From contig NC_001880.1 in NCBI RefSeq assembly GCF_000008625.1, positions 1-32,000 of the forward strand: a stretch of DNA of 32,000 bases. The letters run 5' to 3'. Source of the stretch: Aquifex aeolicus VF5. GTDB taxonomy: Bacteria > Aquificota > Aquificia > Aquificales > Aquificaceae. The notes under the pieces are model-generated. The model was not told the origin of the DNA. It made no database searches and saw only the letters and a list, made by a program, of their open reading frames with translations. Position numbers and translations under genes: made by a program. This document shows, piece by piece, positions 1,711 to 30,965 of this stretch. Position 1 is the first letter of the stretch. Each line of letters begins with the position of its first letter.

Positions 1711-3174
1711 ATGAAAGTAATCAAGAAAACGGTTCTTCTTAAAGTTTACGAACCAAACAAAGGAAAAAAGGAATGTCTTGATAGAGTAATAGACCTTTAC
1801 GCTAAAACGCTTGATTTTTACCTTGACGTTATCAAAAAAGCGGGAATATACAGAATAGTAGCACTTGCGAGGAAAAAGAAAGAAAGAAAATCAGGAAGGA
1901 AAAGCAACTATGCACTCAATTTGCTTGAAAAGTTAACCGTTCCCACACAAGCGCATCCAAACCCCCTCTATCCCATACCCTTCAGCGTGAGAGTTGATAT
2001 AAGAAGGAGTGCAATAAATCAAGCGATAGGAATGGTATCAAGCTACGTGTCAAACTTAAAAAACTGGTATGAAGAAGGAAAAGAACTCGGACACTCAAAA
2101 CCCTCGTATCCTAATCCAAAAAGCTACTCTCCTCAGCTTTACAGCACTTTAGTAGAACTTGACGACTTGCTTGTAAGGGAAAACAAAGAGTTTCACTTTG
2201 TGAGGATAAAGGTTCTGAACGAAAAAGAAAGATAGGAATGGAAGAATTATCCCGTGAAGGTATACAAAAGGTTGTATGAACTCCTGGGCAGGGGATACAA
2301 ACCGTTAAAGAGTGCAAGGTTAATAAAACGTGGAAAAGATTACTACATAGGGATAACCTTGCAAAAAGCTGTCAAGGAAAAGAAGATAAAAAAACCGAGG
2401 TATGTAATAAACGTGGATTTAAACGTTCAGAGGAATTTAGCTTGCATAGGGATATTTGAAGTAGATTGGGAAAAAAGAGAAAGCAAGCTATACGGGATAA
2501 AGTTTGTAAACGGAAAGCTTTTGAGACTTGTATACAAAAGGGATTACTTGTTTGAGGAGATAAGGAAGAAACAGAGGCAGACAGGAAGGAGTCCACAGGT
2601 AGGAGATAATTCAAGACTGTGGAAAAAAGTAAACAATTTAAACAGAGACATAGCTTTAAAAGTAGCGAAAGAAATAAGCGATATAGCAAGGGAGTTTTCA
2701 GAGAAAGGAGAAGTTATAGTAGTATTTGAAAAACTAAAAGGACTCAGAGGTAGGAAAGGAAGAAGCAAGAAGCTAAACAGAAAGATAAACTTCTGGATGA
2801 GAAGGAAAATACAGGAGAGAGTAAAGGAACTCGGATTAGAAGAAGGATTTGGATTAGATTTTGTGTATCCGCATTATACGTCAAAGAAGTGTAGCAAATG
2901 CGGTTATGAGGGAGAGAGGTTCTCTCCCTCGGGTTCAAAAGCGTTGTTTTTGTGTAAGAAGTGTGGATATGTGGTAAATGCGGACGTGAATGCGGTATTC
3001 AATCAACACTTTCTTTACCTGTCCCATCTCCTAAATGGAGGTGGGAAAGCCCGCCCTGTGGTGCGGGTTGGGACTTCGCTGAAAAGTCCCTCACGTGAGG
3101 GACACAATCTAAGCGGAGTCCCTAAAGCAACAACTACCTTTTTCTATATTTCTTCACTTTTGTCTACATTTTAA
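1711..3174 (+). pseudogene. tnpB: TnpB (IS200/IS605 OrfB, IS1341-type RNA-guided nuclease) interrupted by one in-frame TAG at 2233-2235
   Basis: ORFs 1711-2235 and 2254-3174 are in the same frame and separated only by TAG. RuvC-like motifs are present: INVDLNV, VVVFEKLKGL, VVNADVNAVFN. Zinc finger CSKCGY...CKKCGY. No tnpA nearby. Confidence 0.8.
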
Positions 3175-4110: not shown

Positions 4111-5064
4111 ATGGAGCATGAAAAAGCAATAAAAGAAATACTTGGAATAGACGACAGAATAAGGCTTTACGCAATAGAAAAATACGAGAAGAAGAAAAAG
4201 ACATTTTACAGATTTACGGGCTGGGATACTTACAAAAAGAAAATGGTGAAAGTACACATTCCCCGTAAGTTAGAAAAGGAAATCTTCTCCCTTTGGAAGG
4301 AACATCAGAAGGAGAAGCAACAACTAAAAGCTTTAGAACAAGAAGTCAAAGCACTCCTTGAAAAGTATAAAGACGCCGAAAAGATAAAAGAAGTTCTGGA
4401 AAGAATTGCTCAAGAGAGTATTACCAAAACCGCTTCAAGCCATGCATTAAAGACCTACACAGACAAAGCTAAAGAACTTTTCAAAAAGTTCGAAAAAGAC
4501 CTCATAAATCTCTACAAAGAAGGAGTTTTAAAAAGACTCACAATCCTTCAAGTCCTCTATCTCCTTGCCAATCTGAAAGAAATGTCAGAAGAACAGAAAA
4601 ATCCCCAGTTCCTCTTCAAGAAGGGAATAAGCACGATAATAAAGGTAGCAAAGAACGAAAGAATTCCGAATCCCTTCGGAACGCTAAAAAATGACTTTTT
4701 CCTTTCCGGGACACAAACTCCCTACGACTTTCTACTTTCAAGTTTCCTGGAAGAAGTCCTCGAAGAAACCTTGAGAGAGCTTCTTGAAAAAGAAATAGAA
4801 AAAATAGAAGCAGAAAGACGGGCAAAGGAATACGAAGAAAAAATGGAAAAGATAAAAGAAATAGTGGAGTGGTTCGAAAGCTTGCCCCACAAAATAAAGC
4901 AAACTGCAAAAGAAGTGATTTCTCAAAACACCGTGGAAGTAGCGGAAAAAATTTTGAAAGACATGGAAGATGGAAACTTCAGCTTGAAGGAAGTTCAGGA
5001 CTACCTTGAAAAGTCTACAAGAGAAAACCTTGTTGACTACTTCAGGTATCTCAAAAACCTTTAG
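4111..5064 (+). CDS. 317-aa conserved protein of module 1, putative initiator or array-binding protein (function inferred)
   Basis: Paralogs at 8785-9741 and 30009-30965. Shared blocks are LQVLYLLANLKE and NPFGTLKNDFFLSG.QTPYDFLLS. No Walker or HUH motifs seen. Confidence 0.8.
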   Translation: MEHEKAIKEILGIDDRIRLYAIEKYEKKKKTFYRFTGWDTYKKKMVKVHIPRKLEKEIFSLWKEHQKEKQQLKALEQEVKALLEKYKDAEKIKEVLERIAQESITKTASSHALKTYTDKAKELFKKFEKDLINLYKEGVLKRLTILQVLYLLANLKEMSEEQKNPQFLFKKGISTIIKVAKNERIPNPFGTLKNDFFLSGTQTPYDFLLSSFLEEVLEETLRELLEKEIEKIEAERRAKEYEEKMEKIKEIVEWFESLPHKIKQTAKEVISQNTVEVAEKILKDMEDGNFSLKEVQDYLEKSTRENLVDYFRYLKNL

Positions 5065-5876: not shown

Positions 5877-6824
5877 ATGGAACATTTCATAGACACCTAT
5901 CTTTACGAACTCAGGAAAGTAAGGGACGAAAAGACGATAAAGAAAAAGGAGTATCTTCTCAAGCACCTTCAGGATTATTCCGAGGACCTTCCCGCATTTG
6001 ACCAGTCCGAAATCTTCTCCTTCTATGAATACCTCAAAAACAAGAACCTCAAAGAAACTACCATAAGAGACATTCTCAAAGAAGTAAGGCTCTTCTACGA
6101 ATGGTTGCAGGAGCAAGGACTTAATTTGAAGTTTGACGAAAAGGCACTCAAAAAGCTATTTCAGTCTAAAAAGTCCCAAGAAGCCCTAAAGTCAAAGAAG
6201 AAGTATTACTCGGACGATGAGATAAACCTTATCTTGAATGCCATAAGGGGAGCTGTGGAGGGAATTTCTACAAAACACCCGATTTACTACATTCTTACGA
6301 TATTCCTGCTTTGTTCGGGACTGAGAATTTCCGAAGCGGTAAAGGTAAGAAAGAAAGACTTTGAAGTAAAGAGAATTTTGACGGAAGAAGGAGAAGAAAA
6401 GGAAGTGTGGTTTGTAAAAGTAAGGGAAGGAAAGTTCGGAAAGGAGAGAAAGGCACTTATCTACTTTTTCCGTCCTGAATGGAAGAGGATTTTTGAGGAA
6501 AGACTTAAAAAACTAAAGCCCGAGGACTTTTTCTTTACCTATGCGGTCAAATACCCAAAAAGCGTTAAAGTGTTCACACTTACGGATAAAACCGCCAAGT
6601 GGTTTTACTGGAAACTGGAAAAAGAATTAAGGGAAAAGGGATATGAGATTGAAGTAAACGCTCACAGGTTTAGAAATACATACATAACGAAGCTGGCAAC
6701 CAAAGGATTTCCTGTGAACCTGATAGCGGACTGGGTAGGACACTCAAAGATTTCCACTACTATGGACGTCTACATGGAAGCGGAGAGGGAAAAGCAATTA
6801 GAGGCTATTTTGGAGAGGATTTGA
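5877..6824 (+). CDS. tyrosine recombinase / phage-integrase family
   Basis: 315 aa. SGLRISEAV (box I Arg), HRFRNTYITKL, VGHSKISTTMDVY (His and catalytic Tyr region). Confidence 0.85.
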   Translation: MEHFIDTYLYELRKVRDEKTIKKKEYLLKHLQDYSEDLPAFDQSEIFSFYEYLKNKNLKETTIRDILKEVRLFYEWLQEQGLNLKFDEKALKKLFQSKKSQEALKSKKKYYSDDEINLILNAIRGAVEGISTKHPIYYILTIFLLCSGLRISEAVKVRKKDFEVKRILTEEGEEKEVWFVKVREGKFGKERKALIYFFRPEWKRIFEERLKKLKPEDFFFTYAVKYPKSVKVFTLTDKTAKWFYWKLEKELREKGYEIEVNAHRFRNTYITKLATKGFPVNLIADWVGHSKISTTMDVYMEAEREKQLEAILERI

Positions 6825-8784: not shown

Positions 8785-9741
8785 GTGAGGGAGGAAGTTG
8801 AAAGGAAAATAAAGGAAGTTCTCGGAGTAAAAGAGGAGACTTTAAAGTATGAGGGAGTTTTCAGACGAAGAAAGAGGAAGGGGGCAAAGGAATACGAATA
8901 TCTGGAAGCAAAGTTCTATGACATTGAAGAGAAGAAAATTGTAAACGTCCACGTCCCTGTAAAGAAAGAAAATCTTGTTCTTGAGCTGGACAGGCATTGG
9001 AAAGAAAGCAAGAAAAGGGAAAAAGAACTTGAAAAAAGGTTGAAAGAAATAATATCCGAATACAAAAATCCGGACCTAATAAGAGAAATCCTTGAAAGAC
9101 TCCTTGAGGAAGGCATTCGGCGAGAAGCAAAAGATTACGCTTATGAAAAATACAAAAAGGAAGCTCTTGAGCTTTTTGAGAGGTTCAAGCCCTATCTTAT
9201 CAAGCTAAGAAGGGAAAGACTGAAAAGAATAAACCTTTTGCAAGCACTATACCTTCTTGCGAATGTAAAGGAAATGTTCCAGGAAAAGGAAGAAGAACTT
9301 GAAAAGGTCATGGAAAGAGCGGTAAAAACAATCCTCTTTAGAGACCAAAACCAGAAACTTCAGAGTCCTTTGGGAGTCTTGAAAAATGACTTTTTCCTTC
9401 CAAAAGAAACTCCTTACGATTTTTTGCTTTCTCGTTTCCTTCAAGCGGAACTCGAACCTGTGCTTGAAAAGCTTCTGAAAGCGGAAATAGAAAAAGAAGA
9501 GACACAAGAGGCTATGGGAGAAATTGCAGAGTTTCTGACAGAACTTTCTGAAGAAGCAAAAAGTAGGGTTCTCAAAGTATTTCCATCCTTTTCGCAGTTT
9601 TCTAAAGTTTTGTACCGTGAGTGGAAGAAATCCGGACAATCTCTCAAGGATTTTCTTGTAGATTGGAAAAGCTTTCTCGAGTTCAAAGGAAAAGAAGCTG
9701 AAAAGGAAGTTTTGAACGTATTGTCTAAATTGAATTTATAA
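8785..9741 (+). CDS. 318-aa conserved protein of module 2 (putative initiator-like)
   Basis: GTG start. Shares LQALYLLANVKE and PLGVLKNDFFLPKETPYDFLLS with the other two paralogs. Confidence 0.8.
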   Translation: MREEVERKIKEVLGVKEETLKYEGVFRRRKRKGAKEYEYLEAKFYDIEEKKIVNVHVPVKKENLVLELDRHWKESKKREKELEKRLKEIISEYKNPDLIREILERLLEEGIRREAKDYAYEKYKKEALELFERFKPYLIKLRRERLKRINLLQALYLLANVKEMFQEKEEELEKVMERAVKTILFRDQNQKLQSPLGVLKNDFFLPKETPYDFLLSRFLQAELEPVLEKLLKAEIEKEETQEAMGEIAEFLTELSEEAKSRVLKVFPSFSQFSKVLYREWKKSGQSLKDFLVDWKSFLEFKGKEAEKEVLNVLSKLNL

Positions 9742-16474: not shown

Positions 16475-17431
16475 TTACTCCCTCTTAAATTTGTTGTTTC
16501 TTTTCAGGATAAATTTAAACCTTTTGCTTATGGACACGCGTGAAACTTTGGAACCTTTATGATGCCACTCTATTATTCCCATTTCTTCCAGTTTATTTAA
16601 ATGAGCGTAGAAAGTTCTCTTCTTAAGACCTGAGAGATTCAGCAACTCGTCCGTCTTCATTCCGTACTCTCTGTCCTTCAAATGTTTAAGGATTGGTTCA
16701 AACTTGTGTAAAATTTCTTCATACTTTGCTTTCTCATTAATATACCAAGTAATTGCTCCATTTTTGTTTATGTAATAGTATATTTTTTCAAAAGGATAAG
16801 CAAAATTATGCTTTTCTATTGTCAATACCCGAAAGCTTTTCCCTTCTGTGTAGGCCTGCATAAAGGGAGTTGTTAAAAACTTAATTGTAGATACGCCCTG
16901 ATACCTGTCCGTTTTATTTTTTCCTGAACTTTTAATCGTGTGATGAATAAACATTATGTGACTTTCAGAATTTCTTGCTAACTTTCTTGTTTTTTTAATA
17001 AATTCCTTAACTTCTACAGGATCATAAATAGACTTTCCTTCATAAAAGGCAACAAAACTATCAACCACAACAAAATCGTAGCGTTTTTGTTCCAGTATCT
17101 TTTCAAAACTCCTGTAATCCGAAATGTCGTCCAGATCCATTATTTCCATTTCTGAAGTGCTTATTCTGTATCTTTTTCTTATTGGTTCTAACTTTTCTAA
17201 GATATCTTCCTTATAAAGTTCCAGAGATATATAGGCTACTTTCTTCGGTTCCTTAACTTTGAGTAAATTGTGAAATAAGTTCTTACCTGCACCTGCCAGT
17301 AGACACAAGTAAAGGCTTATGGTAGTTTTCCCTACACCTGAATCACCGTAAAGTATGGAAACGTATCCCTTCCTGAAAAACTCGTCAAAATTTTGCGCAC
17401 TGTTGCTCCTTTTGTATTCACTTAACCTCAT
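16475..17431 (-). CDS. RecA/KaiC-like (RepA, AAA_25-type) P-loop ATPase with C-terminal winged-helix
   Basis: Walker A GDSGVGKT and Walker B DFVVVDSF. The C-terminus [32 protein letters not shown] is wHTH-like. Confidence 0.7.
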
Positions 17432-21712: not shown

Positions 21713-22333
21713 CTAGTTTTCTAGGTACTCTTTTACTTTTCTTTTAAAGAATTCTTCAACTTCCTCCCAGTAAGGTTCTATATCTTCATAAACTTCTTCC
21801 CTTGCATCTTCGAAATATACGAGACTTTTTACAATAATTGAAAAGTCAATATTCCTGTACTTTTTTTTAACCAATTTTTCAAGCTCTTTTAAATCCCATC
21901 CGTGTTTTCTCATCAAAAACCACAGGTCGTAAAAATCCTTCTTTGACCCCCTTTGAGCTATTGCTACTGCCTTCATACAGGCAATATCCTTGTCCCCCGC
22001 TATGAAAATCCCAAGATCATTATTTTTTTCAGGGTTCTCTAACAGCGGGTATCGGTATTCAAAAAAAGAGAATTTAATTCCATCAAGCAAGAATATTAGA
22101 GTATCTTTACTCTGATAAAGCCACCTTACTCTGCTTAGTTTATCAATTTGCCTTGATATAGAGAAACTGTCAAAGGGTTTTTCAGGAAAAGTAAAAAAGT
22201 CAAAATCATCTGAAAATCTGTGCCCATATCTTATAAGCAAAGCGGTTCCTCCTGCAAGATAAAAATCGTTACAGATCCCTAAAGAAACTACTTTTTCTAA
22301 AGCCTCTCTCTGTTCTTTCTTTAACTTCCTCAT
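21713..22333 (-). CDS. AbiEii/DUF1814-family nucleotidyltransferase toxin
   Basis: GGTALLIRYGHRFSDDFDFF motif. 206 aa. Confidence 0.7.
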   Translation of the reverse strand: MRKLKKEQREALEKVVSLGICNDFYLAGGTALLIRYGHRFSDDFDFFTFPEKPFDSFSISRQIDKLSRVRWLYQSKDTLIFLLDGIKFSFFEYRYPLLENPEKNNDLGIFIAGDKDIACMKAVAIAQRGSKKDFYDLWFLMRKHGWDLKELEKLVKKKYRNIDFSIIVKSLVYFEDAREEVYEDIEPYWEEVEEFFKRKVKEYLEN

Positions 22334-22517
22334 CGCTTATATTTAAAGCTAACTTCCAGAAAGCTCTATTTTTAGCGTCAAACCTATGCAGGTTTTTCAA
22401 AAATGCCTCTCTCAGTTTTTTCCTAGGATATTTTTTGAGAACTTCTTTTACGTTTCCGTAAAGCATTTCTCTTATCAAAAGTTCCCTTTCACTTTTTACC
22501 TTGTCCCAGTTAAACAT
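22269..22517 (-). CDS. hypothetical protein upstream of the AbiEii-like gene (possible cognate partner)
   Basis: 82-aa ORF overlapping the downstream gene by 65 nt. No motif recognised. Confidence 0.4.
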   Translation of the reverse strand: MFNWDKVKSERELLIREMLYGNVKEVLKKYPRKKLREAFLKNLHRFDAKNRAFWKLALNISDEEVKERTERGFRKSSFFRDL

Positions 22518-23456: not shown

Positions 23457-23627
23457 CTAAAGTTCCTCAAGAAGATCAAGTATTTTCCTGTAAGTAACAA
23501 TCGTAAAAAGGACAAATCCGAGTGTTAGCGATGAGCCCGCAAAAAGCAAGAAAACCTTTAGCAAGCTATCAAGCTTTAACAACAGCCCTATATTTCCACC
23601 GCCGAAAGTTAATGATAGCTTTAAAAT
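23457..23627 (-). pseudogene. 5'-truncated copy of the 2-TM membrane protein family
   Basis: LTFGGGNIGLLLKLDSLLKVFLLFAGSSLTLGFVLFTIVTYRKILDLLEEL. Fused in frame to the end of the exonuclease pseudogene. Confidence 0.45.
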
Positions 23628-24209
23628 TGGTGAAGGAATTCCAAACTTACGACATACAAATTCAAGTTTATATTTCTTTTTGTATCTCCTTCTGAAAGGA
23701 ATTGTAGTAAATCTATGTGGAAAGTTCTATCCTTTAAAAACTTCATTGGAATGTCTATGTCGTGAAGTATAGATCTTATTTTCATTATGTATCCATCAAA
23801 TTTATATCCGTTGTAGCTAACAATTCTATCAGCTTTTATTATTTCTTCCCAGAATTTTTGTATGAGGATTTTTCCTTTTCTTCAAGCTCTTCATAAATAA
23901 AGTCGGAACTTATCGGTTCAAAGAAAACTTCTACAGTCTTATTCTTACCACATGGGATTAGTTTTTTTGTCGTTCTGGTTTGTTTGATCGGAAAGATATA
24001 CTACTTTTCCTTCTTTTATTATCACTATCTTCTATAAGTACCGTTGAGAAAGATACTAAAATAAGCGTGAAGGGATTAAAAGAAAATTCTCGTTCAATAT
24101 CTTCCTGTGTTTTTTCCCTTTTGCCCCGCTTCTGAATGTATAAATAGTCATCGTAAGTAATATTCCTTTTATCAGGAACTGTTTCTATATCAAAAACTAT
24201 AACTTTCAC
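23628..24209 (-). pseudogene. PolB-exonuclease-like 3'-5' exonuclease, multiply frameshifted and 3'-truncated
   Basis: Starts MKVIVFDIETVPD (Exo I-like). Later frames give FWEEIIKADRIVSYNGYKFDGYIM and KYKLEFVCRKFGIPSP. Confidence 0.6.
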
Positions 24210-24246: not shown

Positions 24247-24795
24247 TCAGCGTTTACTTATTCTTATAACGGAAAACAGAGAGGTGAAAATATTTCTCTT
24301 TTCACTTACCCCTATAGTTTTTAAAAACTCCTCTTTTAGAATGAGATAACTGTCCTGTAAAAATCCATTATCAAATTCTTCAAGCGGTGTGAGATAACCC
24401 GCATCTTTTATCTGGACTTTATAACAAGGGACAAGTTTCTTTTGATCCTGTTTGTGATAATAACGGACCTCTTCAAATTTTTCGGGAGAGGTAAGGTAGA
24501 GTTTCTTCCATCCTTTGAGCATAGCCCTTTCAAAGTTCCCGTAATAATTTTCGGGAACGGGAATTCCCTCGTTAAGTAGAAAGTCTCTTGAAAAGTAAAG
24601 AGGATCTTCTTCTTTTAACTCAATCTTTTCAGGATTAACACATTTTAAAAACTTCAGAAAGAGAGAATTGTTTGCTTTTCCTAAAAGTTTATTTACGCTC
24701 TTTTTTGAAGAAATCTGAACCTCAAAAGGCAAGAAACACGCTCTCCTGAAAATCTGCCTTTCTCCCGTAAGATCAAAAAGATTACTGGTTAACAT
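24247..24795 (-). CDS. hypothetical protein, possibly the C-terminal continuation of the upstream P-loop NTPase
   Basis: ATG at 24795 overlaps the upstream stop by 14 nt. The frame is open up to 24828. IFRRACFLPFEV resembles the RR...iPF segment after Walker B in D5/P4-type NTPases (weak). Confidence 0.5.
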   Translation of the reverse strand: MLTSNLFDLTGERQIFRRACFLPFEVQISSKKSVNKLLGKANNSLFLKFLKCVNPEKIELKEEDPLYFSRDFLLNEGIPVPENYYGNFERAMLKGWKKLYLTSPEKFEEVRYYHKQDQKKLVPCYKVQIKDAGYLTPLEEFDNGFLQDSYLILKEEFLKTIGVSEKRNIFTSLFSVIRISKR

Positions 24796-25561
24796 AGCTC
24801 CTCTTTTTACTCCCGAGTCTCCACTCAATTCCTTTAGCTTTTAGCTTTGAACCAAGTGCTCTTTTATCCCTGAGATGTTCTGGTGGAACTTCGTCAATAA
24901 GAACAGGCATTCTGTTATCTATGTAAAGAATTGCCTCAAAAGTATTTGCCTTGCTGTTTCTGGTTTCCTTTAATTTTCCGTAGTAAATTTTTTCTGTCCC
25001 CAGAAGTTTTGCTATGAAATTAAGAAGCGTAGTTTTTCCGGCCTTAGGAGTACCTATTAAAAGGGAAAATACGGGAAATTTATTTATATCCTTCATTAAC
25101 TCAGTTGCTTTTTCCCTGACTTCCTTGAGAAATACAGAATAAAAAGAAAATATAATAGCCTCTCCGGTTAAAAATCTGTGTTCCTCACTCGTTTCTGTGG
25201 AAAGTTCTATATAATCCTTTATCGCAATTACAGTTTTCTTTACAGATTCCTCGGGAATAGAAATCTCAACAACGGATTTTCCATTATAAAAAATTTCTCC
25301 ATCGCAAACCGCTACGTTTACTTTTTCATCTTTATCTTCCCTTTTATTCTTCAAGATTTCCTGAATCTTTTGAGGAGATATTAGTATTTCCTTCTTCTTT
25401 TCCGCAAGCTTCTGAAACATTTCTGCGCTTTCTTCAACCGCTTTTTTTCTGACAAGAGACTTCTGAGCTTCGTTAAAAATGGGACTGTTAATCACTTTAG
25501 TATAGTAGTAATTGAGAACAACATTTTTTACTTTTTCGTTTTTCTCAAATTCCTTTATCAC
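24782..25561 (-). CDS. P-loop NTPase (Walker A GTPKAGKT, Walker B VLIDEV)
   Basis: ORF track entry. Its frame stays open upstream, without a start codon, to 25789 and overlaps the PLD-domain ORF. Confidence 0.65.
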   Translation of the reverse strand: MIKEFEKNEKVKNVVLNYYYTKVINSPIFNEAQKSLVRKKAVEESAEMFQKLAEKKKEILISPQKIQEILKNKREDKDEKVNVAVCDGEIFYNGKSVVEISIPEESVKKTVIAIKDYIELSTETSEEHRFLTGEAIIFSFYSVFLKEVREKATELMKDINKFPVFSLLIGTPKAGKTTLLNFIAKLLGTEKIYYGKLKETRNSKANTFEAILYIDNRMPVLIDEVPPEHLRDKRALGSKLKAKGIEWRLGSKKRSYVNQ

Positions 25562-25740
25562 TTCCCTTACTACTTCCGGTTCCTGAGTTTCTATAAACAG
25601 ATTTAAGTGTTTTTCAATTTTCTTACTATTTTCAGATGCCTTTTTTCTTAAATCGGTGGAGCTTATTATTTTCCTTGCCCTACTTTTTACATAATTGTAA
25701 TACCTTTCACATTCTTCAATTACGTTATCCTTTTCAATTA

Positions 25741-26184
25741 TTACAAAAAAAACTCTTCCTGAGGTCCCCTCCAGGCTAAAGAGGATAAATTACCACTCCC
25801 TGCTACGACAATTTTCCTTTCTTCGGATTCAAGTATGTATAACTTTGTATGACAGTTTGGAATGTAGTAAACGGAGAAATCTTTAAACATGGCTTGTTTA
25901 CTTATTTCTTCTCCTTCTTTGAGGAACTTTTCCACTATAACTTCCAGGTTATAAAGTTCCCTTCCTTGTTCTTCTAACCCTATCAGGATTTCCACTTCCC
26001 TGTAATCCTTTAAAAGATCAAGGATACTCTTCAGAGAGGAGAAAGTTATAGCTTTTATCCTGTTGAATTGCCTAAGGTATTTCCCTGGAATATCGTACAG
26101 GAGTTTAATTTCCTCTTCGCCTATACTAAGAATAGGCTTTTTAGTATCTTTTTCAGGTTCCTCTGAAAAAAGTTGTTTGTTCAT
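25741..26184 (-). CDS. PLD/HKD-domain protein
   Basis: ATG at 26184 after a GGGAGG SD. The motif CHTKLYILESEERKIVVAGSGNLS fits H-x-K...G-S-x-N. It ends in a T8 run followed by TAATAA. Confidence 0.65.
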   Translation of the reverse strand: MNKQLFSEEPEKDTKKPILSIGEEEIKLLYDIPGKYLRQFNRIKAITFSSLKSILDLLKDYREVEILIGLEEQGRELYNLEVIVEKFLKEGEEISKQAMFKDFSVYYIPNCHTKLYILESEERKIVVAGSGNLSSLAWRGPQEEFFL

Positions 26185-26334
26185 TATACCTCCCAAACTA
26201 CTTAAAATTTCGCATCAGATAGTGCCTATTTCAAGCTAAGTCCTATCTTTTACTAAACTTACTTTTCTAACTTATATAAGTTATATTACTTATAAAACTA
26301 AACTTTATTTAAAGAATAAAATTCATTAGCACCC

Positions 26335-27954
26335 TTATACGACTTCTACCAGTAAAGGAAAAGGTACGCCGGTTCCGCTCACAATACCTTTACCGGTAGG
26401 TAGTTTCGGAAGAATGTTCGCTATATCACTTCCAGCAAATTCTACAAAAGTGGAAACTGTATCAATGTCAGATGCATTTATAGTTCTAAACATAACCTGA
26501 GTGTTTAATTGAGAAAGGATATATTTGCTAACCTGTGCTGGTCTTTGCGTTATTACCATAAGTCCTAAATTGAATTTCCTTCCCTCGGATGCTATCTTTC
26601 TGGCAAAAGTGAGAGAAAGGTTTTCTTTTCCTGCGGAGACATCCCCGAATCCCTTTTCTGGAGCAAAATTGTGCGCCTCTTCCAGAACTAAAAATCTTTT
26701 GGAAGGTTGTTTCTTATTCCTTGTAAAAAGCTCTTCCATTATCAGTCCTGCTATGTTTATTCTCGTTTGTGGATGCGTAATATTCCGGAAGTTAAAAATA
26801 ATTACTCTCTTTTCACTTTCTAGTCCAGAATTTATTGCATCAAATACAGTTGTTTGGTTAGATAAACTATTTTCACCGTAAGTTTCTTTAAGGTAAGTGG
26901 TTATTTCTTGTATTTCCTTAGAACCCGCATTTAAACTTTCTATCAAATTAACAAGTGTTTTCTTAGATAAAGAAGTAAGTCTAAGAGAGGGTTTTATGTT
27001 CTGTGAAAGTTTTGATCTATTTTCCCTGGCCTGGTGTGAATTACCGCTTACCAGTGAAGGGTATCCTGCTTCTTTTATAAGTTCTTCCACTTCCTCTGGA
27101 AACACAGGGAAAATTGTATCTTCAAGTTCGATATGTTCTATCTAGTTTTCATCTATATAACTCTTTAAATCGTTGAAGTATTCTCCGTGAGGATCAAGTA
27201 CATAAACTTCAACTTCTTTATCGGATTCAAGTAAACTGGAAATAAACCTTTTTGTAAAATAGCTTTTTCCTGAACCGGTAGTACCTAGTACGAGCATGTG
27301 TTTACTTATCACCTCGTTTGCATCTACAAACACATCTATGTCAGAATTCTCAATCACGCCAACTTTTACAGGAACTTCCATATCTCTCCCGGAAAAATTC
27401 TTCTTGAGTATTTTCCCCAGTGTTTTTTCTGATATTTTATAAACAGGTTCTCCTACATGGAAGGGATTTCTTAATATATCTAATTTTCCATCCTTTAGTA
27501 TACCTATTACGTCCGCGGTTGCTATTTTCAGTTTATTTCCATTATTGTTGAGGTAAGCGTAAATAGCCGCCTTTTTCCATTCGTCATCTTTTCCTTTAGA
27601 AAAAATGGTTTTAAAGTCCTCTACGGGAGCAAAAACACTGGATTCCTGTGAAGTGAAGGGATTCGCAAAAAATCCCATATCGTAAGCAAAAATACTTGTT
27701 ATCTTTCCGAGCACAATACCTTCCTGTAATTTCACTTCAACGTAAGAATGTAAACCTATATCATCATTGCCTACCAGAATAAACTCAAAGGATTGAGGTT
27801 TTACAGGATTTACAGTAAATCCTAAAAGATCATCTCCAAAACTTTCGGAATACTCTTCCTTAATTTTTTCAAAGTATTCACGTAGTTTTTTAATATGTTC
27901 ATCACTGCCGTCCGATTCGTAATAAACTCCCGCTTCTATATTGCCCGTTGACAT
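26335..27954 (-). pseudogene. herA: HerA/FtsK-superfamily (DUF87) ATPase interrupted by one in-frame TAG (27144-27142)
   Basis: Walker A LGTTGSGKS, VLDPHGEY, Walker B FLVLEEAHNF and ITQRPAQVSKYILSQLNTQVMFR. ORFs 27142-27954 and 26335-27105 share one frame. Confidence 0.8.
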
Positions 27955-27955
27955 A

Positions 27956-28291
27956 TCAGATAATCCTGCATCCGGTAAAGTTCGCCGAACCTACGACTGC
28001 CCTTTTATTATCAACGATTATGAATTTTGCATGTAGCCTGTTACACAGGTAAATTTTTCCATTTATATCTTTAATATTTCTAAATACTCTGTCATTAGTT
28101 ATGAGAAAATCCCTAAGTTCTGATGCTCTCAATATTATTTCAGGAGAAATATTTTTACTCTTTGCTATATTCAGGATTTCTTCAAATATACTCCCTTTTA
28201 TCCATGCGGATGCGATTTTTATGCTTTCCTTAGCTTCTTTTGTTATTTCTAAGATTTTCTTATATATTTCCTAGCTCGTCAGGATTTCCAT
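27956..28291 (-). pseudogene. small Nuc-like PLD/HKD nuclease with in-frame TAG at codon 7 (28273-28271)
   Basis: SD GGAGGG then ATG at 28291. The motif LHAKFIIVDNKRAVVGSANFT is present. Its stop lies 1 nt before the herA ATG. No alternative start after the TAG. Confidence 0.65.
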
Positions 28292-28404
28292 ATATTCTCC
28301 CTCCACTTCGGCTAATATAATATTTAATCTTATTCAGCATTGTATCAACAGGCTATCAATGAAGTAATAAAATCTAAAGGAAATTTTCAGAGAACAAGCA
28401 AAAT

Positions 28405-28995
28405 TTATATCTTAAAAAGATAATAGTAATAAGTGAGTTGAAAGTTCTGCACTCCATGCCTACTTCTGTAAAGTAATCCATGACAAAGGATACTTAAACT
28501 GTTATTTTTGTCATTTTCCATAAATTTGCTGAGTCGTTTAATTGTCTGAGTGTATGCTGATCTTGAAATGTATAAATTAATTGATAATAAAAATTTGTTT
28601 TGGACTTCGTCAAGTTCTCTTAGTTTGCATACATCTTCCCTCAACCACGAAAAATTATTATCAATAATAGTTTTCACTTCCATAACTTCAATCACAGTTC
28701 CATCGTCTTTTTTTACAAGTGAAAAATCCGGTTGCTTGTTTGATTCTAATTTTGTTTTTGTCAGAGTTTCAGCTATACCGAGTTCTAAATTATTTGGTAA
28801 ATTTCTTATATTTCTTATAAATTTTTCTGCCAAATACGTTACCATCGCCTGTTCAAATCCGTAATCGTTCTTACGAAAATGTTTCCGATTTTCTTTCATT
28901 TTGTACAGATTTATTTGTGCAACTTCATCCAATATATGCTTAAAATAGTCAGGCAGATTTTCAAGCGCTTCACAAGTCCAACTATCAAAATACAT
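28405..28995 (-). CDS. hypothetical protein, possible PD-(D/E)xK nuclease fold
   Basis: 196 aa. QPDFSLVKKDDGTVIEVMEVKT fits PD...ExK. Motif-level guess only. Confidence 0.5.
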   Translation of the reverse strand: MYFDSWTCEALENLPDYFKHILDEVAQINLYKMKENRKHFRKNDYGFEQAMVTYLAEKFIRNIRNLPNNLELGIAETLTKTKLESNKQPDFSLVKKDDGTVIEVMEVKTIIDNNFSWLREDVCKLRELDEVQNKFLLSINLYISRSAYTQTIKRLSKFMENDKNNSLSILCHGLLYRSRHGVQNFQLTYYYYLFKI

Positions 28996-29078
28996 AATTC
29001 ATATAAAGATTATACGTATGAGCATCAAAAAAATATCGCTTTCAAAAAGCTGAAGCTGCGAAGGATAGAAACTAAACG

Positions 29079-29318
29079 TTAGATAACATAGTTCTGTAAA
29101 GTATTTTTCAATATCGTAAGAACTTTTTTCTCTTCCTTTGAAAGCCCTTCTAAAAATTTTTTGCCTTCGAGGAATTCCTTTATAGGAAGAAAGTAAGTTC
29201 CATCTCTTCTTTCAATTCTAATTGCTCTAACAGGTTGATCTACGATAGAAATAATTGAATTTTTTAGCTTAATCTCCTTAAAAAGAAAAGGAGTTATGCA
29301 TTTTCTACTTGACCTCAT
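29079..29318 (-). CDS. hypothetical protein
   Basis: 79 aa, 11 nt downstream of the module 3 HTH gene. Confidence 0.5.
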   Translation of the reverse strand: MRSSRKCITPFLFKEIKLKNSIISIVDQPVRAIRIERRDGTYFLPIKEFLEGKKFLEGLSKEEKKVLTILKNTLQNYVI

Positions 29319-29329
29319 AGCTATTAAGT

Positions 29330-29548
29330 TTAGACGGAGAGCTCCTGAACAAGAAAATCTACCACTTCCGGTTTGAAGTAGTAGTAATTAACAAGTCCTC
29401 TTCTCTTTATCCTTACCAATTCACCGGGAATGAAGCCTCTCTTTACATAACGGATTAAAGTTCTATCGCTTATCTCTATACCTCTTTCTTTAAGTTCTCT
29501 TAGAACCTGCGTACTCGTAAGATATCCCTGAATTCTTATTGCCGGCAT
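29330..29548 (-). CDS. small MerR/excisionase-like HTH protein (module 3)
   Basis: 72 aa, paralog of 3448-3669 and 8069-8290 (YYYFKPEVVDFLVQELS). Confidence 0.65.
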   Translation of the reverse strand: MPAIRIQGYLTSTQVLRELKERGIEISDRTLIRYVKRGFIPGELVRIKRRGLVNYYYFKPEVVDFLVQELSV

Positions 29549-29605
29549 TTACATTAAGATAATAAGCTCTAAAGCCTTCCTTTTCAAGGAAAAAATAGAA
29601 TTAGA

Positions 29606-29949
29606 GTTCTCCTATATATAGGAGAACTACTTTGAGCTCGCTAAAAATCAAGTCTCAGACACACCACTTGAACTCCGGAAGTTCTCCTAGCTATAGGAGA
29701 ACCGCTACTTAACTTATTGATTTTCAAGCACTTTCTGTTTAGTTCTCCTAGAAACATTTATATCTTTTTCCATATACAAAAGCTTTTTGTTATTGGAGAA
29801 GTAATAAGTTATATAGGAGAACTCTCCTTTCAAGTTTTTGATTTTCAATATAGTTCTCCTATATATAGGAGAACTTTTGTGATTTTTTCTATTCTGTAAT
29901 GCCCGATTTTTAGTTTGGTCATAAGTGGTTCTCCTAGAACTAGGAGAAC
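29606..29949. repeat. palindrome (iteron-like) array, module 3
   Basis: GTTCTCCTATATATAGGAGAAC at 29606-29627 and 29853-29874. Variants at 29681-29702 and 29928-29949. Left half at 29742-29750 and right half at 29814-29822, separated by a 63-nt AT-rich spacer. Confidence 0.85.
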
Positions 29950-30008: not shown

Positions 30009-30965
30009 ATGCTTGAAGTTGAAAAAAAGATAAAACAAAAGCTGGGGATAGATGAAACAGAGGTCCTGAGCTCCCTAACGAGCTACCGGAAAAAAGGCAA
30101 AACCTACTATAAAATTGTAACATACGATTCAAAAACGAAACAATCTAGGAGATACCATGTGCCCAGAATGTTCGAAGAGGAGATTTTAGCTCTCTGGAAG
30201 CAGCGGCAGAAGTACATTGAAGAAGAAAGGGAACTTGAAAGGGAAGTAAAAAGCCTCTTAAAAAAATACGGGGATGCAGAAAAGATAAAGGAAATTCTGG
30301 AAAAAGTAGCAGGAGAAAGTTTTGATAAAGCTGTTTCCTCTTACGCAATTAAGACTTACACGAATAAGGCAAAGGAACTCTTTAAGAGTTTTAAAGAAGA
30401 CCTTATAAAGCTTTACAGGGAGGGAGTTTTAAAAAGGCTTTCAGTTTTGCAGGTCCTTTACCTTCTTGCAAATTTGAAGGAGATTTCCGAAGATACGGAA
30501 AGAGGAAGTTACTTTTTCAAGAAAGGACTGAACACGATAATAAAAGTAGCAAAAAACGAACGTATCCCAAATCCTTTCGGAACACTTAAAAACGACTTTT
30601 TCCTTTCGGGAAAGCAGACCCCTTATGACTTTCTCCTTTCGAATTTTCTTGAAGAGCTTATAGGAGAAACTCTAGGAGAACTCCTTGAAAAGGAAATTGA
30701 GAAATTAGTAGCGGAAGAAAAAGCAAAAGAAATCGAGGGAAAAGTAAAGAAGTTAAAGGAAATTGTTTCATGGTTTGAAACCCTTCCCTACGAAATAAAA
30801 CAGATTGCAAAAGAAGTAATTTCTGACAATGTTCTGGATATTGCAGAAAAGTTCTACAAGGATATGAAAGAATGCAATTACTCTCTTGATGAAGCAAAAG
30901 CATTTTTAACAAGTTCTCCTAGAGATAACCTGGTGAATTACATGCAATACCTTAAGTCTATATGA
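30009..30965 (+). CDS. 318-aa conserved protein of module 3 (putative initiator-like)
   Basis: Closest paralog of 4111-5064, with long identical blocks such as KNERIPNPFGTLKNDFFLSG. Confidence 0.8.
   Translation: MLEVEKKIKQKLGIDETEVLSSLTSYRKKGKTYYKIVTYDSKTKQSRRYHVPRMFEEEILALWKQRQKYIEEERELEREVKSLLKKYGDAEKIKEILEKVAGESFDKAVSSYAIKTYTNKAKELFKSFKEDLIKLYREGVLKRLSVLQVLYLLANLKEISEDTERGSYFFKKGLNTIIKVAKNERIPNPFGTLKNDFFLSGKQTPYDFLLSNFLEELIGETLGELLEKEIEKLVAEEKAKEIEGKVKKLKEIVSWFETLPYEIKQIAKEVISDNVLDIAEKFYKDMKECNYSLDEAKAFLTSSPRDNLVNYMQYLKSI

Follow-up and report, generated by a model that had tools for sequence, protein, structure and literature searches.

The extrachromosomal element ece1 of Aquifex aeolicus VF5 measures 39,456 bp in full. 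Its first 32,000 nucleotides (NC_001880.1, positions 1 to 32,000 of the forward strand), referred to here as the window, contain three neighbouring open reading frames (ORFs) on the minus strand. An initial sequence-only reading interpreted these as a nuclease-HerA system composed of a 196-aa protein with a PD-(D/E)xK-like motif, a small HKD nuclease of the phospholipase D (PLD) type and a HerA-family ATPase. The three ORFs and their domains are present where that reading had located them. The region probably represents one recently inactivated fusion gene next to an unrelated orphan gene rather than a three-gene system, with the intact form of the fusion predicted to be a HerA-like ring nuclease for which defence is the likeliest role.

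One PLD-HerA gene with three lesions

The 540-codon frame (26335-27954, minus strand) matches DUF87/HerA (E=8e-25) and the HAS-barrel family PF09378 (E=5.5e-11) in Pfam. The frame preceding it (27956-28291, minus strand; about 111 aa) matches PLDc_2 (E=2e-10) and PLDc (E=5e-9), carries the HKD signature HxK(x)4D(x)6GSxN and stops about five residues past the GSxN of this motif. The "HerA" ORF opens with 40 residues (GNIEAGVYY...LREYFEKIK) resembling the C-terminal part that the PLD domain lacks, with the C-terminal third of this domain (GNIEAGVYY...YFEKIK) being encoded in the HerA frame. Removal of one G at 27972/27973 yields a single 651-codon frame, running on the minus strand from the ATG at 28291 to the TAA at 26335. 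At the frameshift point, homologues have GSANFT-DAGLSD, where the window has ACC-GGA-TGC. The TGA of the PLD frame ends 1 nt ahead of the HerA-frame ATG (27954), which had been taken as translational coupling of a complete, separate HKD nuclease to HerA. Because the frame restored by deletion of the G can be aligned with homologues over its whole length, this abutment is the scar of a 1-nt insertion, and the supposed small nuclease is a frameshifted part of the fusion. The stretch 28291→26335 is one gene, whose product (PLD-HerA; Table 1) has a PLD nuclease domain with a single HKD motif at its N-terminus, followed by a HAS-barrel and a RecA-like ATPase of the HerA type.

The sequence GGAGGG is the sole good Shine-Dalgarno sequence and precedes only the ATG at 28291; on inspection of the sequence, nothing comparable was found upstream of the internal ATG at 27954. 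A promoter and terminator scan of 26000-29700 returned sites no more numerous than in shuffled sequence. The HKD catalytic motif occurs once per chain, and its residues H87, K89, D94 and N104 are invariant in the alignments. In addition, the ATPase segments GTTGSGKS, LEEAHNF and QRPAQVSK are invariant in alignments of 17 and 58 sequences, and all three are kept in the window copy. Public records split the pseudogene into fragments, among them aq_aa31 (O66421), which by exact-sequence match is a 270-aa N-terminal HerA fragment.

Table 1. Features of the PLD-HerA pseudogene and the adjoining orphan ORF (window positions)
Feature	Position	Strand	Basis
PLD(HKD)+HAS-barrel+HerA fusion pseudogene, 651 codons after G removal	26335..28291	-	homologue alignment and frame reconstruction
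Shine-Dalgarno GGAGGG, 8-13 nt 5' of true start (ATG 28289-28291)	28299..28304	-	sequence reading
Lesion 1: in-frame TAG at codon 7 (family consensus Asp)	28271-28273	-	frame reading and alignment
Lesion 2: 1-nt insertion (ACC-G[G]AT) shifting the frame within the PLD domain	27972..27973	-	alignment and G deletion
Lesion 3: in-frame TAG within a variable ATPase-domain linker, terminating annotated aq_aa31	27142-27144	-	frame reading and alignment
HKD catalytic motif HAKFIIVDNKRAVVGSAN (H87, K89, D94, N104), intact	27980..28033	-	columns invariant in alignments
HAS-barrel, approximately residues 148-285 of the reconstructed protein	27435..27849	-	PF09378 E=5.5e-11; beta-barrel in homologue AF2 model; Foldseek
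Walker A GTTGSGKS	27262..27285	-	invariant columns
Walker B FLVLEEAHNF	26665-26694	-	invariant columns
Conserved QRPAQVSK segment	26524-26550	-	invariant columns
aq_aa32 (O66422), 196-aa orphan ORF with D90...E106-x-K108 motif, outside the PLD-HerA unit	28405..28995	-	exact-sequence match

An independent assembly (L088; Logan, run ERR15087784) is identical to the window over 6,813 bp (30954→24142) except for one single-nucleotide polymorphism (SNP), and the lesion sequences are equally present in it. The lesions are not errors of the deposited sequence, because this independent assembly matches it, and sequencing error was rejected as their source on the same ground. The PLD-HerA gene on ece1 is a real pseudogene, for which a full-length protein would need three separate recoding events. 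Repair of the TAG codons, as initially proposed for expression experiments, does not suffice, since the 1-nt insertion also has to be removed. The lone SNP (C/T at window position 26772) results in P395S within TDPxTR, a conserved segment of the HerA frame; such a change is expected of a gene that has escaped selection and agrees with pseudogene drift.

In a 58-member alignment, all 60 invariant residues and 59 of the 60 near-invariant ones are retained by the window copy, whose distance to outgroups (0.561) falls within the range of intact relatives (0.557-0.570). Since the invariant residues are kept and the outgroup distance equals that of intact relatives, the inactivation looks recent, with the dead copy appearing to preserve the ancestral sequence almost perfectly.

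The orphan aq_aa32 has only two homologues among 5.8 billion protein clusters (62% and 51% identity). Both (L092 and L093) lie in chromosomal housekeeping surroundings without a HerA neighbour. Apart from these two, no homologue was found in the 175 retrieved loci outside ece1, and aq_aa32 is missing from every other PLD-HerA locus retrieved. On these comparisons, aq_aa32 is not a partner of PLD-HerA. The D...ExK motif noticed initially is present, with D90, E106 and K108 being invariant in aq_aa32 and its two homologues (3 sequences), and the predicted order of secondary-structure elements fits a PD-(D/E)xK core, so that aq_aa32 may be a nuclease. Profile and fold comparisons lend this assignment no support: aq_aa32 has no Pfam, NCBIfam or PADLOC family match, and its AlphaFold2 (AF2) model from three sequences, a poor one with a predicted local distance difference test score (pLDDT) of 45.5, has no Foldseek match at E≤0.001. 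The block had also been described as AT-richer than its surroundings. This holds weakly, at a GC content of 0.339 versus 0.367 for the window (17th percentile of same-size windows), and aq_aa32 alone is low (0.303). As a separate observation, a 181-aa protein without family match lies directly downstream of the PLD-HerA gene at another locus (L098 5742-6287) and has a D...ExK-like motif of its own (ADIVIF...LVVLETKY), as seen by eye. In hhalign comparisons, the aq_aa32 profile showed no relationship to the small unannotated PLD-HerA neighbours in L098 and L085.

Two explanations that would leave the ece1 locus functional have to be weighed against a pseudogene. One is the operon originally envisaged, in which the PD-(D/E)xK protein and a small HKD nuclease translationally coupled to HerA act as one system. 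This is scarcely credible: the ORFs are co-oriented, the PLD-frame stop does lie 1 nt before the HerA-frame ATG and aq_aa32 does have a conserved D...ExK motif, but nuclease and HerA form a single fused protein in the homologues, the junction stems from a 1-nt insertion, premature TAG codons occur in both the PLD and the HerA reading frames, and neither the other PLD-HerA loci nor the two relatives of aq_aa32 show the two genes together. The other explanation is that the gene is still expressed, with amber read-through at both TAG codons and a +1 ribosomal or transcriptional frameshift giving a small supply of the full-length protein, for example to keep a toxic nuclease in check. Such recoding would agree with the otherwise perfect conservation of the sequence (60/60 invariant residues and no rate acceleration), with all three in-frame nonsense codons of the window being TAG and with the stability of the lesions in the second data set. 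It is nevertheless highly improbable, given that several ordinary ORFs on the same replicon end in TAG, that the window encodes no suppressor tRNA and indeed no tRNA at all, and that neither a slippery nor a stop-stimulated motif is present at the frameshift site (ACC GGA TGC). Furthermore, the sole SNP in the second data set is the missense change P395S in a conserved motif, and the neighbouring aq_aa27-like and DnaQ-like genes are likewise frameshifted, pointing to general decay. Reassignment of the stop codon was also considered and rejected, because ordinary ORFs end in TAG, the window holds no suppressor tRNA and reading TAG as sense extends ORFs less than reading TGA or TAA as sense.

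The intact family and its relation to known systems

A search with the 652-aa protein of the joined frames against the 5.8 billion protein clusters listed at least 120 matches. Nearly all of them measure 635-690 aa, span 98-100% of the query and combine PLDc_2 with DUF87. Among the matches listed, the best has 67% identity to the query, the family is concentrated in thermophiles, and the named matches from Thermococcales come from two genomes only (Pyrococcus yayanosii and Thermococcus sp. 18S1). Intact orthologues of approximately 650 aa are found in Aquificota, Thermotogota, Acidobacteriota, WOR-3 and Thermococcales. The coupling of an HKD/PLD nuclease to HerA, as suspected from the sequence, is therefore conserved outside ece1, with more than 100 homologues having the two as a single polypeptide. 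Judged by these alignments, intact PLD-HerA is a conserved, uncharacterised family of predicted single-polypeptide nuclease-translocases.

The AF2 monomer model of the closest intact homologue (P0001; pLDDT 89.2) has a beta-barrel segment at the HAS-barrel position and aligns with HerA chains across approximately 600 columns. Its best PDB matches in Foldseek are the HerA chains of the Thermococcus kodakarensis HerA-NurA complex (E=1e-33), of Sulfolobus solfataricus and of the Sir2-HerA and DUF4297-HerA systems. These HerAs are also the solved chains closest in sequence, and the N-terminal domain is nearest to NucT (6ehi). The NCBIfam models nearest to the PLD part are DrmC, NucT and DpdK, while the HerA part has weak profile matches to the P-loops of TraG, TrwB and VirB4.

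No named system was matched, in agreement with the sequence-only reading. No NCBIfam model reaches its cut-off for the fusion, PADLOC 2.0 contains no model spanning the whole protein (its HerA models match in two partial stretches only), and no solved structure in the PDB has the fusion. In the searchable literature no description of it was found, although a passing mention is possible, most likely in Iyer et al. 2004. In this literature, HerA is paired with NurA, Sir2, DUF4297 (Hailibu) and Dnd/BREX-related "capture" systems, and PLD nucleases are paired with helicases of superfamilies 1 and 2 (SF1/SF2; Mokosh, Azaca). The PLD-HerA coupling is real, conserved and apparently undescribed.

HerA-NurA of archaea and Deinococcus-Thermus shares with PLD-HerA the HAS-barrel and the RecA-like HerA (9x1m, E=1e-33, and 4d2i by fold; 4d2i, 3e-40, by sequence) and, as far as can be predicted, a nuclease positioned on the HAS-barrel side of a ring that translocates DNA. 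NurA is an RNase-H-like nuclease. It forms a separate dimer, whereas the nuclease of PLD-HerA is of the PLD/HKD type and covalently N-terminal. In addition, NurA, Mre11 and Rad50 are not linked to PLD-HerA: Pfam finds none of them among the window neighbours, and none is annotated (precomputed Pfam) at the 8 distinct homologue loci for which genes had been called. The helicase_HerA model scores 109 bits, its cut-off being 970. Sir2-HerA (Nezha) and DUF4297-HerA (Hailibu) likewise combine HerA with an effector on the N-terminal face and show strong fold similarity (8wod, 8xau, 9c1m, 8zit), and PLD-HerA resembles them in often being found in a defence-island context. They differ in that the effector is a Sir2 NADase or the PD-(D/E)xK protein DUF4297 instead of a PLD nuclease, and in being encoded by two genes instead of one. 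The HerA_antiphage and HerA_antiphage_2 models reach 112 and 94 bits versus cut-offs of 800 and 850. No Sir2 or DUF4297 effector gene is adjacent in the window (Pfam, PADLOC) or at the homologue loci checked.

The combination of an HKD/PLD nuclease with a P-loop NTPase is a general defence logic, the NTPases of Mokosh and Azaca being SF1 and SF2 helicases (bioRxiv 10.1101/2025.07.10.664194). PLD-HerA has the same combination, and the best PADLOC match of its PLD part is DrmC of DISARM (5.6e-10); both this match and that to MkoB of Mokosh (2.8e-8) are confined to the HKD motif. In DISARM, the partner NTPase of DrmC is a helicase. In contrast, the NTPase of PLD-HerA is predicted to be a ring translocase of the FtsK-HerA superfamily, and the other genes of these systems are absent, with no Drm, Mko or Zac partner gene in the window. 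In NCBIfam, DrmC_I reaches only 50 bits, its cut-off being 133. The stand-alone nucleases Nuc and NucT are of similar size to the PLD domain (approximately 150 aa), also have one HxK(x)4D(x)6GSxN per chain and include the nearest solved PLD structure (NucT, 6ehi). However, the similarity is weak (E=5e-4), and the PLD of PLD-HerA is a domain of a 650-aa ATPase without signal peptide or secreted context.

Genomic surroundings and probable role

Scans of genomes and metagenomes, together with exact-protein matches, gave 25 loci with a full-length fusion, 24 of them distinct. At least 10 of the full-length fusion loci analysed come from the genome-contig scan and at least 7 from the metagenome scan, the remaining matches being generic HerAs. 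An all-vs-all comparison of neighbouring ORFs across the 25 loci revealed no shared cluster beyond pairs of related backbones. The PLD-HerA fusion is a stand-alone gene without a conserved partner. When all window neighbours were compared by tblastn with every retrieved locus, matches were obtained solely in ece1 itself and in a plasmid-like contig of Aquifex pyrophilus (L083). This contig encodes ParA, PIN/MazE and an integrase, and an intact PLD plus P-loop gene of the aq_aa27 family adjoins.

Elsewhere, the surroundings are varied. The loci named next, like the A. pyrophilus contig, are of defence or mobile-element character. The Hippea sp. KM1 locus contains PARG, GIY-YIG and transposase genes as well as an AddAB-like pair, that of P. 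yayanosii AbiEii, an rve integrase and ScoMcrA_N, and that of Desulfurobacterium AbiEii with an antitoxin and a DUF6036 nucleotidyltransferase. At one locus (L091), a 674-aa N6_N4 methyltransferase is encoded 13 nt downstream of PLD-HerA. In hot-environment metagenomes, intact PLD-HerA is found beside a methyltransferase/specificity fusion and a prokaryotic Argonaute (pAgo, Piwi) gene (L100 9989-13835), beside a WYL regulator and an IetA-like AAA ATPase (L101 4110-6343) and directly adjoining a type III Csm5 gene (L103 6778-8001). A housekeeping context was found for L080 and L090 from precomputed Pfam annotation, and a housekeeping-looking one for L005, L006, L007 and L009, whose neighbours were judged by eye only, including a RadA-like reading in L006.

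The family was also sought on mobile elements. Among 72,556 plasmids of PLSDB, tblastn with P0001 found only distant HerA-only matches and no family member, and neither megablast of the region nor tblastn of a 318-aa paralogue gave a match; ece1 and the PLD-HerA family are not represented in PLSDB. The family is not viral either, because the IMG/VR scan gave only three distant HerA-only loci and no PLD-HerA.

In single-HKD nucleases such as Nuc, NucT and Zucchini, two HKD domains pair into one active site. In every characterised HerA assembly known to us, the effector docks on the HAS-barrel face. By analogy, intact PLD-HerA would form a HerA-like hexameric ring that pulls double-stranded DNA through its pore at the expense of ATP. 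The PLD domain, attached directly N-terminal to the HAS-barrel, would be positioned at the face where NurA, Sir2 and DUF4297 dock on other HerAs. As single-HKD nucleases form one site per two chains, the six PLD domains of a hexamer may pair into up to three metal-independent nuclease sites around the pore entrance, to which threaded DNA would be presented and there cut. The invariance of both catalytic centres across the family argues that nuclease and motor act together.

The most likely role of intact PLD-HerA, as judged from context, is defence against foreign DNA. Defence is favoured because of the patchy phyletic distribution, the plasmid carriage in Aquifex and the defence-island neighbours, and plasmid backbones, too, are often found next to the gene. 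A more detailed proposal is advanced tentatively, as a possibility that falls somewhat short of an even chance: intact PLD-HerA would be a defence system not described before that consists of one polypeptide and belongs mainly to thermophiles among the bacteria and archaea. In it, the hexamer would feed foreign DNA to three tethered PLD dimers, and the ece1 copy would have been inactivated recently, perhaps on account of the cost of the nuclease to its host.

The main rival view is that the same anatomy serves cellular DNA repair, with PLD-HerA acting in end resection at double-strand breaks in thermophiles as a one-polypeptide analogue of HerA-NurA. The closest folds are indeed the end-resection HerAs of Thermococcus and Sulfolobus, the matches listed concentrate in thermophiles, and some loci have housekeeping surroundings or lie near repair genes, namely the AddAB-like pair of Hippea and the RadA-like neighbour read by eye in L006. 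A repair role is unlikely, however, in view of the patchy distribution, with only two Thermococcales genomes named among the matches listed. Thermococcales possess canonical HerA-NurA. In Aquifex the gene is plasmid-borne and, as a pseudogene, dispensable; pAgo, Csm5, AbiEii, WYL regulators and methyltransferases are frequent neighbours, and linkage to Mre11/Rad50 was seen in no locus. Alternatively, PLD-HerA might serve the plasmid itself, processing or pumping DNA in the transfer, replication or partition of ece1-like elements in the manner of Nuc and FtsK/VirB4-type ATPases, an option already raised in the sequence-only reading. On both Aquifex elements, PLD-HerA has ParA nearby and directly adjoins the second PLD plus P-loop gene of the aq_aa27 family, and the weak profile matches to TraG, TrwB and VirB4 P-loops point the same way. 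Still, this is very unlikely: most homologues are chromosomal, without plasmid or conjugation genes nearby, none occurs on the PLSDB plasmids or in IMG/VR, and ece1 persists despite the broken gene. Moreover, no conjugation genes are linked in the window, and the fold is that of HerA proper with its HAS-barrel, not of a coupling protein.

Several points weigh against a recently inactivated defence nuclease as preferred here. Approximately one-third of the examined loci lie in housekeeping surroundings, with which a DNA-repair role like that of HerA-NurA is compatible. Three disruptive lesions beside at most one change in 120 invariant or near-invariant residues, a change which itself may predate the lesions, are more than would follow from simple neutral decay; a rough estimate would expect approximately five changes at conserved sites beside two nonsense substitutions. 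Hexamer formation, PLD pairing, nuclease activity and the defence phenotype are all inferred, and the architecture may have been mentioned earlier.

Other genes of ece1 and significance

The toxin-antitoxin and insertion-sequence surroundings described in the sequence-only reading are real. An AbiEii-family toxin gene (E=1e-15; 21713-22333) and a small upstream ORF together occupy 21713-22517 on the minus strand, and homologues of both are encoded just upstream of PLD-HerA in a contig of an Aquificaceae metagenome-assembled genome (L001 6313-7225). A TnpB-type gene with a Cas12f1-like TNB domain (E=3e-13) at 1711-3174 on the plus strand is interrupted by an in-frame TAG at 2233-2235, and the integrase at 5877-6824 is aq_aa09 by exact-sequence match.

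Immediately downstream of PLD-HerA, a second gene combining a PLD-type (NgoFVII-like) nuclease with a P-loop NTPase is located at 24247-26196 on the minus strand. This member of the aq_aa27 family (Pfam PF27394) is frameshifted twice, with the first shift located at a T8 run (around 25745-25755). On the plasmid-like contig of A. pyrophilus, a 650-aa homologue is intact (L083 7962-9914) and adjoins PLD-HerA, the two genes being convergent; at the other PLD-HerA loci examined, the gene is absent. A DnaQ-like 3'-5' exonuclease gene (FDIET ... YNGxxFD; about 23600-24209, minus strand) is decayed as well, being split by a frameshift near an A7 run. Besides PLD-HerA, ece1 carries several other decayed genes. 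In addition, ORFs of approximately 318 aa without Pfam match are found at 4111-5064, 8785-9741 and 30009-30965 on the plus strand and at 16475-17431 on the minus strand. Their similar lengths suggest that they may form a paralogous ece1 family; the ORF at 30009-30965 is aq_aa34 by exact-sequence match.

For A. aeolicus, the annotation is corrected in that aq_aa31 and the neighbouring fragments are one pseudogene. The window copy has no function of its own to study, which limits the value of the ece1 locus. To our knowledge, the detachable effectors with which HerA rings work are of three kinds: NurA, Sir2 and DUF4297. A PLD nuclease fused to the entry face of the ring would be the simplest design of an effector-HerA, and PLD-HerA may offer a tractable, thermostable model for the coupling of translocation to cleavage. 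If the proposed role is correct, a PLD/ring-translocase class would be added to the nuclease-NTPase defence repertoire, in which PLD nucleases have so far been joined to SF1/SF2 helicases.

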